64,000 nucleotides of DNA, from IMG/VR virus record IMGVR_UViG_3300024259_001623, one strand, 5' to 3'. Below are positions 2,071-43,878 of this stretch, in pieces (the stretch's first letter is position 1; each line of letters starts with the position of its first letter). The position numbers and the translations under genes are program-made. The notes beneath the pieces were generated by a model. It had not been told where the DNA came from, made no database searches, and worked only from the letters and a program-made list of their open reading frames with translations. The DNA comes from a virus (lineage: Duplodnaviria > Caudoviricetes).

Positions 2071-2930
2071 TTAAATATCCCCCATCGTTTAGTATCAATA
2101 GGTAAACAAATAATCTTTTTATTTTTATTTTTTCTATAGATAATTCTATTATTTTCTCTTAATTTCTCTGATAACCAATTTTTTTCATGCTTATGAGAGA
2201 TATGATATACAGTAAAATAACTATTAGGACGCAAAGTTCCTTTTTTGTAATATCTAAAAGCTCTTAAATTAAAATCCAAATCTTCTAATCCATGACCAAT
2301 GAATCGTTCATCAAATCCGCCCAATTTAAAGAAATCATCTTTGGGCATAGTAAAATGACTATTACCTAAAGCTTTTGTCCTATAAAATTCTGGATCGCTT
2401 CTCATATTAGAAGGTAAATCATTTAATTTGATTTCTTTTTTAGTATATCTCTCTAATGCCAACTTATGTCTATTAATATTTTTGCACAATATGGCATATA
2501 ATTCTTTTTTAGTAAGATTATTGCAATTCTTTTTTATTCTTTGAGATACTCTATCATTTACGAATCTAACCCTATGAGCCAATTTAGTTTTTGTACCATT
2601 TTTAAAAAAATCATCTACATGACCAAGAAAACCTGGCAAAACCATAGAATCTATGTCTAACATAGTTATTAAATTGCCAGAAGCCTTGGAAGCACAATGG
2701 TTTAAGGCTTTAGTCTTCCAGAATGGCCCTGCATATCTAACTTTCAAAACTTTTAAATTCATCTTGTCTTTATACAAGTTAAATATTTTATCTGAACCAT
2801 CTGTACTATTCAAATCTGTAACAATAACTTCATACTTAGCATTAGTTTCTTCGCCAGATAAATACAAACTTCTCAGAAAAGTTTTTAGACATGCTTTCCT
2901 ATTTCTATATGCAGAAATTATTGTGTTCAT
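2067..2930 (-). CDS. Glycosyltransferase family 2 with galactosyltransferase-like C-terminal motif
   Basis: IISAYRNR, EVIVTDLNSTD, KTKALN, MLDIDS (DxD), GGFDERFIGHGLEDLDF. Confidence 0.85.
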   Translation of the reverse strand: MNTIISAYRNRKACLKTFLRSLYLSGEETNAKYEVIVTDLNSTDGSDKIFNLYKDKMNLKVLKVRYAGPFWKTKALNHCASKASGNLITMLDIDSMVLPGFLGHVDDFFKNGTKTKLAHRVRFVNDRVSQRIKKNCNNLTKKELYAILCKNINRHKLALERYTKKEIKLNDLPSNMRSDPEFYRTKALGNSHFTMPKDDFFKLGGFDERFIGHGLEDLDFNLRAFRYYKKGTLRPNSYFTVYHISHKHEKNWLSEKLRENNRIIYRKNKNKKIICLPIDTKRWGIFK

Positions 2931-3841
2931 ATATATGAAATCGGAATTTTCAAGATAAAAAAAGAATCACATAATACTTGAGTTTTATAATTTTCTCTTA
3001 TAGCCAAAATATTACCATCTACATCATAAGTCTTCCTACAAGACTTTCCCAATGGCGAAAATATATTTTGCACATATACATGAGGAATCTTTTTCATCAT
3101 AGTATCTCTTATATAGAAAATTAAATCATCATCTGTAGATTTCCAATGATTGTTTTTATAGGCTGGGAATATCTTTAATAAATGAACAGGCGTATTTTTA
3201 TCATGATCACATATTATTTTAGTAATATCTTCTATATGTTCGTCATCTATAGACGTTGTAGTAATACCATTACTATTTGGATATATTGGAATACTAATTT
3301 CTACATGAGCATTGCTGTTTAATGCATGGATTATATTCTCTAATATCAATATGTAACTATAGCACAAATCATCATCTTCTATTCCGGCCACATCATGATA
3401 AGACTTTTTGCCCCCTTTCAAATCTATGTTAATAGCATCTGAATATTCACAGACATGATTCCAAAACTCTCTTTCTATAAAAGCATTAGTCTTCAAAAAG
3501 GTAAACATGCCAGCCTTCTTAGACATATCAAATAGATTTAATAAATATTCATAATAAACCGTTGGTTCATTATAAGTCATGCCCACTCCATCTACCTTAT
3601 TTTCGATAGCGATATCTACAATCTCTTTACATGATTTGAGATTTTTATTATCACCACCATGCTGACTTATTTTCCAATTTTGACAATAATTACATTTCAA
3701 AGAACATCCATATCCTCCAACAGAAAGAACTGAAGAATTAGGTCTAAAATGGTAGAAAGGTTTTTTCTCTATAGGATCAACAGACAGATTGCTTATGTCC
3801 ATAACTGGAGATATAGTATTGTCAATTATATGAGTTTTCAT
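2927..3841 (-). CDS. Radical SAM enzyme, AmmeMemoRadiSam / PflA-like family
   Basis: DPIEKKPFYHFRP, CxxxCxxC (CSLKCNYCQN), TYNEPT, IDLKG. Start moved to ATG 3841 (ATGA overlap with upstream stop) rather than 3859. Confidence 0.85.
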   Translation of the reverse strand: MKTHIIDNTISPVMDISNLSVDPIEKKPFYHFRPNSSVLSVGGYGCSLKCNYCQNWKISQHGGDNKNLKSCKEIVDIAIENKVDGVGMTYNEPTVYYEYLLNLFDMSKKAGMFTFLKTNAFIEREFWNHVCEYSDAINIDLKGGKKSYHDVAGIEDDDLCYSYILILENIIHALNSNAHVEISIPIYPNSNGITTTSIDDEHIEDITKIICDHDKNTPVHLLKIFPAYKNNHWKSTDDDLIFYIRDTMMKKIPHVYVQNIFSPLGKSCRKTYDVDGNILAIRENYKTQVLCDSFFILKIPISYI

Positions 3842-4629
3842 AAAACTCCCCATTCCCAACCTACATTCTTCGTTATAAAAGACACATCTGATTTCGAGCG
3901 TCTTTCTTCTTGTATCCTAATACGGCGATTATTCTTTTTATAATGCCTGAAAAATAATCTATTATATTTGTTCTTCTCTATCTGATGCCACTGATGCAAA
4001 ATAGATGTTTTGTCATCAATCCATTTTGTTTCCAAACCATCTGCACTAGCTCTCATCCAAATATCATAATCCATACCTGACCACATATTGAACGATTCAT
4101 CATATCCATGAACTTTATGAAACCAAGTAGTTCTCGCAAATTGACAAGAACCACAAGCTCGTAAATCCTCTAATAACTCTGATTCTTCTTTCAAATCGTC
4201 AAAAGAACTCATTCTGAAATTTATTAGATCGTGATCAGGTTTAGTCAAATGAACTCGACAAGAAAGCATACTCTTTTTGCTTCTTTCTTCCCATAAAACA
4301 GATATAAAATCTTTTTTGAAAATACTATCAACGTCTGTACACATAACATATTCTGTTCTACATTCTTTTATACCAGCGTTAAGGGCTTGTGGTTTATTCC
4401 ACATTCGACCATCTAATTCTTTATATATATGGGCAGCACCATATTTTTTGCATATCTTATGGACTTCTTGATATGAATCATCATTGCTCACGTCAACCAC
4501 AATAATATCAGGATATATATCACTATCTTGTTCTCTCAAAGAGTACAAGAAATTGTTCAATCTATATATCCCACGATTATAGATATTATGGATAAAACAA
4601 ACAACCGATAATCCATCCTTATACGTCAT
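3838..4629 (-). CDS. Glycosyltransferase family 2
   Basis: IIVVDVSND, WNKPQALNAG, CTDVD (DxD), GYDESFNMWSGMDYD. Confidence 0.85.
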   Translation of the reverse strand: MTYKDGLSVVCFIHNIYNRGIYRLNNFLYSLREQDSDIYPDIIVVDVSNDDSYQEVHKICKKYGAAHIYKELDGRMWNKPQALNAGIKECRTEYVMCTDVDSIFKKDFISVLWEERSKKSMLSCRVHLTKPDHDLINFRMSSFDDLKEESELLEDLRACGSCQFARTTWFHKVHGYDESFNMWSGMDYDIWMRASADGLETKWIDDKTSILHQWHQIEKNKYNRLFFRHYKKNNRRIRIQEERRSKSDVSFITKNVGWEWGVL

Positions 4630-4631
4630 AA

Positions 4632-5234
4632 TTAATCTGCACCAACCTCTTCTACTTCCTTGACTTCTTCTACTTCCTTACCATACTTATCTTCTTTCCA
4701 TCTCTCTCCTACAATGCATTTTCCGGAAAGATGATCTAATTCGTGCTGTATAACTCTTGCCTTAAAATGGAAATATTTTTGCTCTTCTTGCTTTTCCATC
4801 TTTTCATTCCAATAAGTGATCATGATCTCTGGATACCTGGCGACAGATGTGCTAAAACCGGGATAAGACAAACAACTTTCTTTCTTTCTCTGTTCAAACC
4901 CGCTATAAATATTAACATATGGGTTGATCATAACTGTATACTTGCCATTATTGTCAGGATCAATAACAATAACATTTTTTGTAACACCAATCTGATTAGC
5001 TGCCAAACCTACACCAGAAGGACTTGCATCTAAAACATTCTTCATATCCTTGATGAAGGATAAATCATCGCCGGGGCTTACCTTTTCACATTCTTCTGAT
5101 AAAATAGGATTATCATACTTTAAAATCTTCTTTCTAAGAGCAGTAATTCTAGCTACACGGCGTTGTCTATTTAAATTTTGCACCTTTTTTCTTTTATTGT
5201 CTCTGGTTTTCCCTCTCGGCTTCTTATTCGACAT
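4632..5234 (-). CDS. def: Peptide deformylase
   Basis: GVGLAANQIG, ESCLS (variant of EGCLS), QHELDHL metal motif. Confidence 0.93.
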   Translation of the reverse strand: MSNKKPRGKTRDNKRKKVQNLNRQRRVARITALRKKILKYDNPILSEECEKVSPGDDLSFIKDMKNVLDASPSGVGLAANQIGVTKNVIVIDPDNNGKYTVMINPYVNIYSGFEQRKKESCLSYPGFSTSVARYPEIMITYWNEKMEKQEEQKYFHFKARVIQHELDHLSGKCIVGERWKEDKYGKEVEEVKEVEEVGAD

Positions 5235-5243
5235 ACAAATCTC

Positions 5244-5642
5244 CTATCTAAATAATTTTAACTTTATCTTAATTGATCCATCTTCTTTAGTTTGAGTTTT
5301 ACCTAAAGAATATCGGCCAGCATTCTTTTTTACAAACTTAAAAACTTTATTTTTTGCGTATAATTGTTTCAACTTATTAAGTTTAAAAACTCCCTTATCA
5401 TATGCAGACAGGTGCATAATATACTTGCCGTCTACCTTTTCAAAACCAACATCATTACTGGCACTACCCACCTGCGATCTAGGAATCACAACATGAGCCT
5501 TTTGTTTTCTTTTATCCCCTTGGTATCCATACAGATTTACAGCATCTTGATGAACTTTAGGATTATACTTCATTTCTTTCAAAGCCTGTAAGAGGCAGTC
5601 CACATCATCCATTTCTATTTCTACAACATGAAATTCACTCAT
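5244..5642 (-). CDS. DUF1257 (Ycf35-like) protein
   Basis: MSEFHVVEIEMDD..LLQALKEM, LYGYQGD..Q.A.VVIPR, SNDVGFEK pattern. Confidence 0.75.
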   Translation of the reverse strand: MSEFHVVEIEMDDVDCLLQALKEMKYNPKVHQDAVNLYGYQGDKRKQKAHVVIPRSQVGSASNDVGFEKVDGKYIMHLSAYDKGVFKLNKLKQLYAKNKVFKFVKKNAGRYSLGKTQTKEDGSIKIKLKLFR

Positions 5643-41121: not shown

Positions 41122-43878
41122 TTATTCTTCTTGTAATTCTTTGATATTAAACTGAGGTTCAGTCTTGTAAATTCTTTTACGAGTATCAGAATGCTTTGTA
41201 AGATATTCACAGTGGTCCTTGAAATCTATAACCAGAGCAGATTCCTTTTTGTAATCGCCGCTCGTAAATGGCCTGAGAACTCGCCCAACCCTCTGTAAGG
41301 CCCTCGTTTTGCTTTTACCACCGCCAGCTAGTATTAACGTGTCTAGGGGCCTACAATCGACTCCTTCATCGAATATAGAGGTAGCTATAGTTATCGCAGC
41401 ATCCCTATCTCTATTTCTCATCTTAGATAGATGGGCTTTTCGCTGCTTCCCAGAATGGACTCCATGCAAAAATGTACTTCCATCTATCATTTCACTTAAT
41501 AAATTACCATGATTAACTTGCTGGCATAATATCAAAATATTTTTACCATTTTCTTCAAAAGATTTAGCCATATTGGCAATATATTCATTTCTAACAGAAT
41601 TTTCTACTATTCCCTGTTTATAATAAGACTGGTAATTAAACAACTTACCAGGCATCCCTTTTCTAATAGGAACAAAATAAATATCGGGCTTGACGAGATA
41701 ACCTCTTTCGATCAAAAAAGAAGCTGATACATTTGCTATTTCTCTTCCGAAACAGGCATCGATTAATATATCATCTCCCTTGTCTCGCATAGGAGTCGCT
41801 GACATACCATACCTATATCTTGCATTACTAGAATAATCAGATATAACTTGACATGTATCTGATGCCCAATGCTGACAATTATGAACTAAAATATCATTAG
41901 CAAAAAAACAATGAGTGTCTTCAACTGTTATGTCATAAACATTATCTGATCCGCAATCTTCGATACTACTTATGCCAACGTAATTTGTATTCCATGTGTT
42001 TAGAGATGTGGTCTTTAACAACTCCGTAGATATTTCCTCTTGCTTCTTTCGATATATACAAGACATAATATTTTTTTTTGTATTTATGGATTGTTGATTT
42101 TCCATATTTGGCATTAAACCAATCAGCGCACAATTCGACTTCTGGTAAAGAAAATCCTTCTGTATGTAATCGTAGGCTATTATGAGTTGCTGAACCATCA
42201 TCTCCGATCCACCAAGCCAAGCCAACAGGTCCGATGAGATCAAGCCACTCTTTATTGACTCGTTTTTTACCATCTTTATATACAATCTTATAAATTCCAG
42301 AAAAACATGACGAACAAGGTGTATAACAAGAAATTGTGGTATCTCCATACCCGCCATTCGGGGATATATAATATTTAGGAGATAATCTGTCAAGAAAATC
42401 TGCCTTATACTTTGCCCAACCTTCTTGACATAACCCATGATTGTACACCAATCTTGGAGTTTTACTTCTTTGTGAAGGAAATGATAAACAAGAATCTCCC
42501 AAAAGTGTGCCAAAAATTGCTTGTGATTCTTTTTTAAGTAATGACAATCCCCACAAGTTATTCCTTTTATCATGTCCATAAATGTATTTTCTGTATTTTT
42601 TTGCCCCTTTATTTTTAATAAATGATTCCAATGATGTATATTTTGGCCGCACTTTTCCTCCGCAGCCGCATTTACATTTCGGAGCATTCTCGACAAACTC
42701 TTGGAAAACTTTTTTCCAATCCTCATTAGATCTTTTTCTGATTTGATGACCGAGGATATACTTTGGGTATCTACTCGGGCTTCGACCAAAGACTTCAATT
42801 TTTCCTCCGCAACCACATCTGCACATGACAAAATCTTGTCTGTTTTTTTTATGTCTCCTGCTTGAACCCATCCTTTCTGCGTTTTTATTAAATGATTTTT
42901 TGTACATTTTATATATCTACCTGAATCTAATACTATTTTAATAATAGAGTGTCTACCCTTATACATAAAATTAGTTATTTTCTTCCATACAACACTAGTT
43001 CCATCAAAACTAAGTATATCCTCTCCAATAAAATTAGAAAGTTCTGACATTTTTTTTCTACCACTTCTTGTGACAACTATAGAATCACCAGTTATGCATT
43101 CATCAGCAATGAATCCCTTTGAAGACATAATAATATCTAAAATGTCTTTACGCCTTTCAGATAAAATATTCTTCTCTGCTTTACTAATTTTCTTTGTTTT
43201 ATCTTCTTCGTCAAATCTGACGTATTTTTTACCACAAGCCAAAACAGCAGTTTGGATTGTCATAATAGTTATATCTTGAACATCAAATTTTCCACCACCG
43301 ACTATACCAACCTTAATAGGAATATTATTATAACGCAAAAACTTTTCAAACTCTTCTTTTGTTTGAGTTAAAAGATCTACAGATGGCACATAAAAAATAA
43401 ATGGAGATATTCCTAGTTCTGCAATAAGACCAGCAGCAATAGAAGTTTTTCCACCACCAGTGGCTACTTTGATAATGCCCCTTTGCATTTTAGAAGCTTG
43501 ATGTATAATAGTCTGCTGATAGTCTCTTGTTTCAAAATCATTAGACATATTCAATGATATATTTTTTGCTACAGGTTCTCTCTCATCGAATATGTCAAAT
43601 GGAACAGAATTTTTTACAAAATGATCTCTAGCTTTATTAAAAAGACCAGTTGGGAAATGCGTTCCATCCTTTTTTATTGCACATTTACAATATTTTTTGC
43701 AATAACAAAGGGTAGACTCTATGCCGTCCCATTTTGCATCGGAGCCTCTGACTTGAAAAATGGCCCCTTCTGGACGGTATCCTAAAAGTTTTCTCAAACC
43801 CTGATAAACATCAGAATCTAATCTTCCCTGAATATAAGTCTTTGTATTGGTTACTAATAATTTTATTTTATTTTTCAT
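41122..43878 (-). CDS. SF2 DExH helicase (UvsW/XPB/RadD-like), intein-containing
   Basis: RDYQ, ATGGGKT, ADE-[intein]-CQH, SATP, ATSIFDEGVD, QRVGRVLR. Confidence 0.92.
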   Translation of the reverse strand: MKNKIKLLVTNTKTYIQGRLDSDVYQGLRKLLGYRPEGAIFQVRGSDAKWDGIESTLCYCKKYCKCAIKKDGTHFPTGLFNKARDHFVKNSVPFDIFDEREPVAKNISLNMSNDFETRDYQQTIIHQASKMQRGIIKVATGGGKTSIAAGLIAELGISPFIFYVPSVDLLTQTKEEFEKFLRYNNIPIKVGIVGGGKFDVQDITIMTIQTAVLACGKKYVRFDEEDKTKKISKAEKNILSERRKDILDIIMSSKGFIADECITGDSIVVTRSGRKKMSELSNFIGEDILSFDGTSVVWKKITNFMYKGRHSIIKIVLDSGRYIKCTKNHLIKTQKGWVQAGDIKKTDKILSCADVVAEEKLKSLVEARVDTQSISSVIKSEKDLMRIGKKFSKSLSRMLRNVNAAAEEKCGQNIHHWNHLLKIKGQKNTENTFMDMIKGITCGDCHYLKKNHKQFLAHFWEILVYHFLHKEVKLQDWCTIMGYVKKVGQSIRQIFLTDYLLNIIYPRMAGMEIPQFLVIHLVRHVFLEFIRLYIKMVKNESIKSGLISSDLLAWLGGSEMMVQQLIIAYDYIQKDFLYQKSNCALIGLMPNMENQQSINTKKNIMSCIYRKKQEEISTELLKTTSLNTWNTNYVGISSIEDCGSDNVYDITVEDTHCFFANDILVHNCQHWASDTCQVISDYSSNARYRYGMSATPMRDKGDDILIDACFGREIANVSASFLIERGYLVKPDIYFVPIRKGMPGKLFNYQSYYKQGIVENSVRNEYIANMAKSFEENGKNILILCQQVNHGNLLSEMIDGSTFLHGVHSGKQRKAHLSKMRNRDRDAAITIATSIFDEGVDCRPLDTLILAGGGKSKTRALQRVGRVLRPFTSGDYKKESALVIDFKDHCEYLTKHSDTRKRIYKTEPQFNIKELQEE
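41878..43098 (-). mobile_element. Intein (407 aa) inserted in helicase motif II
   Basis: CITGDS start, block B KCTKNH, block F VYDITVED, block G NDILVHN, Cys+1; central about 290 aa has no endonuclease motifs in this frame. Confidence 0.92.
41966..42907 (-). mobile_element. LAGLIDADG homing endonuclease nested in an alternative frame inside the helicase intein
   Basis: Same strand, -1 frame; CxCGCG twice, IFGTLLGDSCL, L.P.GLAWWIGDDGS, LHTEGFS. Confidence 0.88.

Follow-up and report, generated by a model that had tools for sequence, protein, structure and literature searches.

Homing endonucleases encoded outside the reading frame of the intein that carries them have been described before, and citing papers, Gosselin et al. 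2025 among them, credit the observation to Gorbalenya 1998. Gosselin, Arsenault & Gogarten 2025 (bioRxiv 10.1101/2025.01.02.630785) reported actinophage inteins in which the endonuclease occupies another frame or the opposite strand. Phillips, DeSimone & Gogarten 2026 (bioRxiv 10.64898/2026.09.14.751524) reported a LAGLIDADG endonuclease in the '+2 ORF' (open reading frame, ORF) of the cyanobacterial DnaX intein, where the in-frame filler is modeled with low confidence and the endonuclease frame has a low ratio of nonsynonymous to synonymous substitution (dN/dS); the source of that endonuclease could not be found, and phage helicase relatives go unmentioned in the study. Here we describe a locus of this kind in a marine megaphage, within a stretch of 64,000 nt (IMG/VR virus record IMGVR_UViG_3300024259_001623), referred to below as the window. 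A superfamily 2 (SF2) helicase gene of this phage is interrupted by an intein, the center of which also encodes a separate LAGLIDADG homing endonuclease in the -1 frame. A first-pass annotation of the window had pointed out this arrangement. Its observation is confirmed and its mechanism was essentially right, but its suggestion that no standard description of such a design exists fails, as the two studies above describe such layouts and the element is homologous to the DnaX intein.

The helicase precursor is a single ORF of 918 aa in a genome of 32% GC (31-35% in this part). Pfam matches to ResIII/DEAD and Helicase_C flank a match to Intein_splicing at residues 273-667, for which the score is 61 bits (cut-off 35.8). 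Cys261 and Asn667 of the precursor are the first and last intein residues, and the junctions read FIADE^CITGDS...ILVHN^CQHW (carets mark junctions), so that the insertion point falls inside helicase motif II (DExH); the predicted spliced helicase has 918 - 407 = 511 aa. The intein coordinates (41878-43098) and the precursor and product lengths proposed in the first pass match the ORFs, Pfam hits and junctions exactly. Residues C1, T66, H69, D389, H406 and N407 of the intein are invariant among 36 aligned relatives, and Cys+1 is present. In an AF2 model built from a 36-sequence alignment, residues 1-93 and 370-407 are all-beta with a predicted local distance difference test score (pLDDT) of 90-97. 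The element is thus a class 1 intein of the Hint fold by both sequence and structure, and the earlier description of normal splicing blocks at both ends is borne out by the invariant catalytic residues and the confidently modeled Hint halves. Between these halves, the filler residues 95-368 have a pLDDT of only 24-40, with a few low-confidence helices drawn, and Pfam detects no LAGLIDADG or other endonuclease family in the host frame. Protein splicing of the precursor would be expected from the conserved catalytic residues, the intact replication helicase gene and the homology with the DnaX intein. The DnaX intein of cyanobacteria has been shown to splice.

The same bases contain, in the -1 frame relative to the helicase ORF, a second ORF of 313 aa. 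Its product matches LAGLIDADG_2 (PF03161) in Pfam with an E value of 4.7e-27 and 95.4 bits against a cut-off of 25. The acidic residues of its two LAGLIDADG motifs, GTLLGD138 and WIGD236D237G, are invariant across 32 sequences, as are both N-terminal Cys3-His modules (CxCGCG...GH). The endonuclease model has a mean pLDDT of 87, and only residues 1-18, which overlap the splicing domain, are disordered. The best Foldseek matches to this model are I-WcaI (6x1j, E 7e-15, template modeling score by target 0.74) and I-SceI (E ~1e-12). Judged from these matches, the -1-frame product is an I-SceI-like monomeric LAGLIDADG_2 homing endonuclease that is predicted to cleave DNA. The CxCGCG...GH modules, which correspond to no named family in the domain libraries scanned, could bind zinc, and the endonuclease has no PHROGs family. 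Family match, conserved residues and fold therefore agree with the first-pass report of a complete CxCGCG-LAGLIDADG endonuclease with its stop just before intein block F.

Two lines of evidence establish that the double coding is neither an error nor a coincidence. Contigs from four independent seawater runs, each from a different sample, match the locus with 0 substitutions and 0 indels and cover both A-runs; one of the matching contigs spans 41708-43558. In addition, synonymous codons were permuted within the endonuclease gene in 500 shuffles that kept both the protein and the codon usage. The helicase frame contains 0 stops, whereas the shuffles gave a mean of 6.7 and a minimum of 2, and none of the 500 reached 0. 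The third frame, which served as a control, has 28 stops where shuffling predicts 27.5. In free-standing endonucleases related to this one, the equivalent frame is interrupted by 10-27 stops within ~190 codons. The overlap is thus far beyond chance and compensating sequencing errors are excluded, and the avoidance of stops put forward from the first reading of the locus has withstood the codon-shuffle check proposed for it.

Precursor and endonuclease were each used as queries to collect relatives, and 40 non-identical loci were compared. Their endonucleases are 37-56% identical to the one studied here, and their GC content ranges from 0.29 to 0.60. All 40 have their intein halves in frame +1 with respect to the endonuclease, and over the length of the endonuclease there are 0 stops in this host frame but 7-41 in the third one. 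The insertion site is the same in every locus, xDE^C...HN^C(H/Q)(H/R/S), and the endonuclease ORF is intact here and in about 38 of the 40 relatives. In the codon alignment of these loci, the most variable codon position is that of the host frame over the first ~24 endonuclease codons, which overlap block B, and the phase of variability flips to the endonuclease frame at endonuclease residues ~25-36 (NRQDFVMCRCGC). Past this flip, the third positions of the endonuclease, which are the second positions of the host frame, reach a diversity of 0.6-0.7, near saturation. For the closer pairs, dN/dS by the method of Nei and Gojobori (NG86) is 0.08-0.27 in the endonuclease frame, and the apparent value in the host frame is 1.0-4.9 within the overlap. 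The frame-specific codon diversity and dN/dS therefore place protein-level selection on the endonuclease frame only; in the overlapped host-frame text, selection acts against stops and nothing else. The earlier statement that both frames appear selected holds in full for the endonuclease, but for the host frame it holds solely with respect to stops. The accompanying idea, that an excised intein tolerates filler and can house an independently encoded endonuclease, is supported by a filler that is unselected as protein, stop-free and without a confident predicted fold.

A genome search with the endonuclease alignment retrieved Nostocales loci in which the host ORF is DnaX (Pfam DNA_pol3_delta2 and DNA_pol3_gamma3). 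Their intein, of 430 aa, is inserted at YVIDE^C...VHN^CHMLS, and as in the phage the host is in the +1 frame of the endonuclease. The endonucleases of 13 Nostocales dnaX loci are 31-34% identical to the phage protein over residues 1-309, that is, over the full length. The Hint halves of the DnaX intein are 34% identical to those of the helicase intein, with a BLASTP E value of 3e-16 for the N-terminal half (IntN). By these sequence comparisons, the phage helicase element is a direct homologue and a member of the DnaX-intein family that occupies the corresponding DE^CH site of another P-loop NTPase.

Taken together, the data make it very likely that the locus is a DnaX-type non-canonical intein inserted into the DExH box of an SF2 helicase from a megaphage, with its endonuclease separately encoded in the -1 frame. 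Under this explanation, ribosomes would read the helicase frame straight through the intein, which would consist of an N-terminal Hint half (~94 aa), ~275 codons of host-frame filler and a C-terminal Hint half (38 aa). The filler would not be selected as a protein and would merely be kept stop-free, as any stop within it would abolish the helicase. All 407 residues would then be removed by protein splicing, which would leave the 511-aa helicase. Since the host frame is continuous, with neither a stop after IntN nor a restart before the C-terminal half (IntC), the intein would splice in cis. The same ~0.85 kb, read one base earlier, would serve as a separate gene for an I-SceI-like monomeric LAGLIDADG enzyme with two N-terminal Cys3-His modules. 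By cleaving intein-free DE^C(V)QH alleles, this enzyme would promote homing of the complete element. Intein-free alleles (ADE-V/C-QH) are common among related helicases, and mini-intein alleles also occur; cleavage of the former, followed by homing, is the predicted outcome.

The endonuclease is probably translated separately, with ribosomes initiating internally at either of two conserved ATGs, M1 (42907) or M2 (42871). M1 is ATG in 25 of 32 aligned loci, and the host codon preceding Cys65, of variable amino acid, ends in A in 26 of 36. At M2 the aligned loci have 27 ATG, 4 GTG, 4 TTG and 2 CTG codons, and the codon of host Gly76 is GGA in 25 of 36 loci, compared with 38% GGA at three other conserved glycines. 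This pattern of conservation suggests selection for internal initiation. Several points weigh against the explanation as a whole. The start-codon counts were taken across loci irrespective of shared ancestry, and a Shine-Dalgarno core is absent at all three candidate ATGs (M1-M3). None of the RNA sequencing runs searched contained the stretch, and splicing around an unstructured insert of 275 aa is argued from the conserved catalytic residues and the DnaX homologue. The missing Shine-Dalgarno core is itself uninformative, because the core is also absent in 19 of 47 genes of the same phage (40%), the helicase among them.

Other accounts of the locus were weighed against this one. Production of the endonuclease by -1 ribosomal frameshifting, or by transcriptional slippage, at A_AAA_AAA (42843-42850) would yield a fusion of N-extein, IntN and endonuclease. 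The host frame does offer a perfect X_XXY_YYZ heptamer 27 nt before the CxCGCG motif, and a fusion of just this kind is encoded in one frame by a natural relative, P0123 (L168). At the corresponding place, however, both slippery heptamer and homopolymer are missing from most of the 40 loci, a search for a conserved -1 frameshift site in these loci found none, and in-frame start codons are conserved instead; we regard this route as unlikely. The same A-run figures in an artefactual account, in which a canonical in-frame intein-endonuclease was disguised by two compensating homopolymer errors at A8 and A9. Although the A-runs do lie near both frame boundaries, the contigs of four independent runs are identical without indels, the same frame relation recurs in ~40 diverged loci, most of them lacking A-runs, and a host frame with 0 stops in ~280 codons would not be accounted for by error, so that this account comes close to impossible.

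The two remaining accounts each deny one of the frames the role given to it above. Reading the -1-frame ORF as a decaying, unexpressed relic, with the helicase frame alone mattering, finds some support in relatives with a damaged or missing endonuclease: L100 and L112 each have one stop in the endonuclease frame with the host frame stop-free, possibly an early stage of endonuclease decay, and mini-intein alleles have no endonuclease. The purifying selection on the endonuclease frame argues otherwise, as do the invariant LAGLIDADG aspartates and Cys3-His modules, the confident model and the ORF that is intact here and in nearly all relatives, and a relic is very unlikely. Conversely, the host-frame filler might be a selected polypeptide, for example a splicing regulator, as could be read from a frame that is open in every relative and from the few helices drawn by AF2. 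Such a role is hard to reconcile with second codon positions near saturation, an apparent dN/dS of at least 1, the low pLDDT and a natural allele that lacks the whole stretch, and we consider it extremely improbable. A cis-splicing intein with a separately encoded endonuclease is therefore the explanation carried forward here; its features are located in Table 1.

Table 1. Positions of the helicase, intein and endonuclease features in the window.
Feature	Position	Strand	Basis
Helicase precursor, SF2, ResIII and Helicase_C, with intein inside	41122..43878	(-)	918-aa ORF
N-extein, 260 aa, last residues Walker B/motif II ...FIADE	43099..43878	(-)	
Class 1 intein, 407 aa; Cys1, block B T66-x-x-H69, His406-Asn407, Cys+1	41878..43098	(-)	
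N-terminal splicing (Hint) half, intein residues 1-94, host frame selected as protein	42817..43098	(-)	codon-phase diversity; pLDDT 90-97
Host-frame filler, intein residues ~95-369, stop-free, unconserved as protein, without confident fold	41992..42816	(-)	shuffle, diversity, pLDDT, dN/dS
C-terminal splicing half, blocks F and G, intein residues 370-407	41878..41991	(-)	invariant residues; pLDDT ~95
Predicted homing endonuclease ORF, -1 frame, 313 aa; two CxCGCG...GH modules, then double-motif LAGLIDADG_2 core (D138, D236/D237)	41966..42907	(-)	
Endonuclease stop TAG, at intein residue ~377, ~10 codons before block F	41966-41968	(-)	
Candidate start M1, ATG from host codons AAA-TGT at block B Cys	42905..42907	(-)	
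Candidate start M2, ATG from host codons GGA-TGG (Gly76-Trp77)	42869..42871	(-)	
A8 run, host-frame A_AAA_AAA, a -1 slippery heptamer toward the endonuclease frame, unconserved in relatives	42843..42850	(-)	
Second A-run, A9	42071-42079		
C-extein, 251 aa plus stop, first residues CQHW	41122..41877	(-)	

A tree of 119 endonuclease cores was built with FastTree; it was midpoint-rooted and does not fix the direction of host switching. All 44 rows with the -1-frame layout form one clade (Shimodaira-Hasegawa-like support 95), together with two fractured phage versions and one fused version, and a Nostoc row is nested within it. Outside the clade, the closest rows are ordinary in-frame inteins of ligase-like and clamp-loader genes. 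The fractured versions are those of Pectobacterium phage Amona (L002) and Escherichia phage AN_ECEAS (L003), in which the host frame has 13 and 10 stops, respectively. Their helicase is encoded as an N-terminal part with IntN, a LAGLIDADG gene in the -1 frame, and IntC with the C-terminal part, the N and C ORFs sharing one frame. Such an arrangement corresponds to the fractured genes of Dassa et al. 2009 (PMC2677866), and the inteins are probably naturally split ones that descend from the dual-coded form. The pieces are annotated in both phages as an unrelated 'hypothetical protein', 'homing endonuclease' and 'DNA helicase'.

A stop after IntN combined with a separate start before IntC occurs only in these two relatives and in L168. 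The latter belongs to P0123 (L168-L170, locus 3001-5538), found on 14 contigs, where N-extein, IntN and endonuclease form one ORF of 547 aa, followed by a stop, 12 nt and the IntC/C-extein ORF; the helicase parts of both ORFs are in the same frame. A close relative of the helicase, P0004 (L189), carries a mini-intein of ~136 aa. In the -1 frame of this mini-intein, at about 1560-1610, MCQCGC is joined to MRYKI, a scar from which it follows that the endonuclease was deleted internally. It is tentatively proposed, as a serious possibility that falls short of being probable, that the -1-frame layout arose once, spread among P-loop NTPase genes that have the Walker B context DE^CH in common (phage SF2 helicases and DnaX), and is the direct precursor of the fractured inteins of the Pectobacterium and E. 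coli phages, of the split form with IntN fused to the endonuclease, and of mini-inteins with the MCxCGC^MxYK scar. If this were true, the phage helicase elements would be the missing source pool of the DnaX endonuclease, and the relatives would constitute a natural series of contiguous inteins becoming split inteins.

A second set of dual-coding loci was seen among related LAGLIDADG_2 genes (L018, L021-L024, L028, L029, L031-L033), which have 0 stops in the +2 frame versus 9-27 in the +1 frame. Their +2 frame is a host ORF of ~1000 aa with an intein; the hosts include a Hel308-like helicase with HHH_5 and large terminases. This set is polyphyletic, falling in 2-3 separate places in the tree.

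Some relatives carry further inteins. In L006, L093, L094 and L100 (P0002 and P0006; host ORFs of 1369-1406 aa), the same helicase has a second intein elsewhere, for which an in-frame LAGLIDADG_3 match is recorded in P0002 and none in P0006. In P0015 such an intein sits at the SAT motif, and the DExH site is empty (ADE-V-QHW). When the gene was compared with cultured phages by blastn, only 66-nt matches were found, from the block F/G region (about 41875-41940) to NrdA genes; cultured and uncultured phages alike match there at ~82% nucleotide identity over 66 nt, for example Yersinia phage TG1 (KP202158.1 138495-138560). Other contigs of the same seawater samples have short matches to blocks B and G. 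Both kinds of match suggest related inteins in other genes.

Among cultured phages, Xanthomonas phage FoX3 (L001, MT161383.1 26902-29268) has the same layout, likewise stop-free in the host frame across the endonuclease, in gp40, annotated as a 'putative DNA helicase' of 788 aa; its 266-aa LAGLIDADG ORF in the -1 frame (locus 2339-3136) is unannotated. FoX3 is thus a cultured system in which expression of an overlapped endonuclease can be tested. The new points of this analysis are modest: the kinship with the DnaX intein, the abundance of the element in phages, and derived forms that have lost the endonuclease or are split. The locus also makes a clean, AT-rich statistical case that an intein can carry ~275 codons of meaningless stop-free text, a point of practical value to intein engineering and to gene callers, which label such loci only 'helicase'. 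The long-puzzling cyanobacterial DnaX intein is tied to a large phage-borne family in which related contiguous, split and endonuclease-less forms stand side by side. No new principle is revealed.

Comparison with known systems places the element nearest to the intein of DnaX (DNA polymerase III gamma/tau). The Hint halves, the endonuclease including its CxCGCG modules, and the frame relation are homologous; insertion immediately follows the Walker B DE and precedes C-H; and a low-confidence host-frame filler accompanies an endonuclease frame under purifying selection in both. The host differs, being a phage SF2 helicase (DExH box) here and the clamp-loader gene dnaX there, and in this marine megaphage of 32% GC the avoidance of stops is statistically demonstrable. 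The actinophage inteins of Gosselin et al. 2025 likewise have an open host frame with the endonuclease outside the extein/intein frame, and they are proposed to have arisen when a free-standing endonuclease invaded an intein. Their endonucleases, however, are EndoVII-like (sense strand, frame 3), antisense LAGLIDADG or antisense Vsr-like, and their GC-rich actinophage hosts carry them in TerL, DNA polymerase, capsid and ThyX genes; a sense-strand LAGLIDADG_2 enzyme in a helicase is not among the inteins they reported.

The first-pass annotation had set the design apart from in-frame inteins and from fractured genes, and this distinction stands. Canonical LAGLIDADG inteins such as PI-SceI and PI-PfuI also combine a Hint domain with a LAGLIDADG nuclease at the same loop, but theirs is of the LAGLIDADG_3 type and fused in frame, whereas here it is a separate polypeptide of the LAGLIDADG_2/I-SceI type and the host frame encodes no endonuclease family. 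In fractured genes (Dassa et al. 2009, PMC2677866), as at this locus, the intein halves of a replication gene of a phage flank an independent endonuclease gene. Fractured genes differ in that the host frame here is continuous, a single ORF that neither ends after IntN nor restarts before IntC, and in that the endonucleases of Dassa et al. are GIY-YIG and Vsr-like rather than LAGLIDADG. Finally, the out-of-frame HNH insertion of ShiLan in phage methylases (Arsenault et al. 2025, PMC11855218) resembles this locus in hiding an endonuclease in another frame of an insertion that is stop-free in the host frame; it has no splicing domain and its insert stays in the protein, whereas the intein described here would be removed from the helicase, and its nuclease is HNH.

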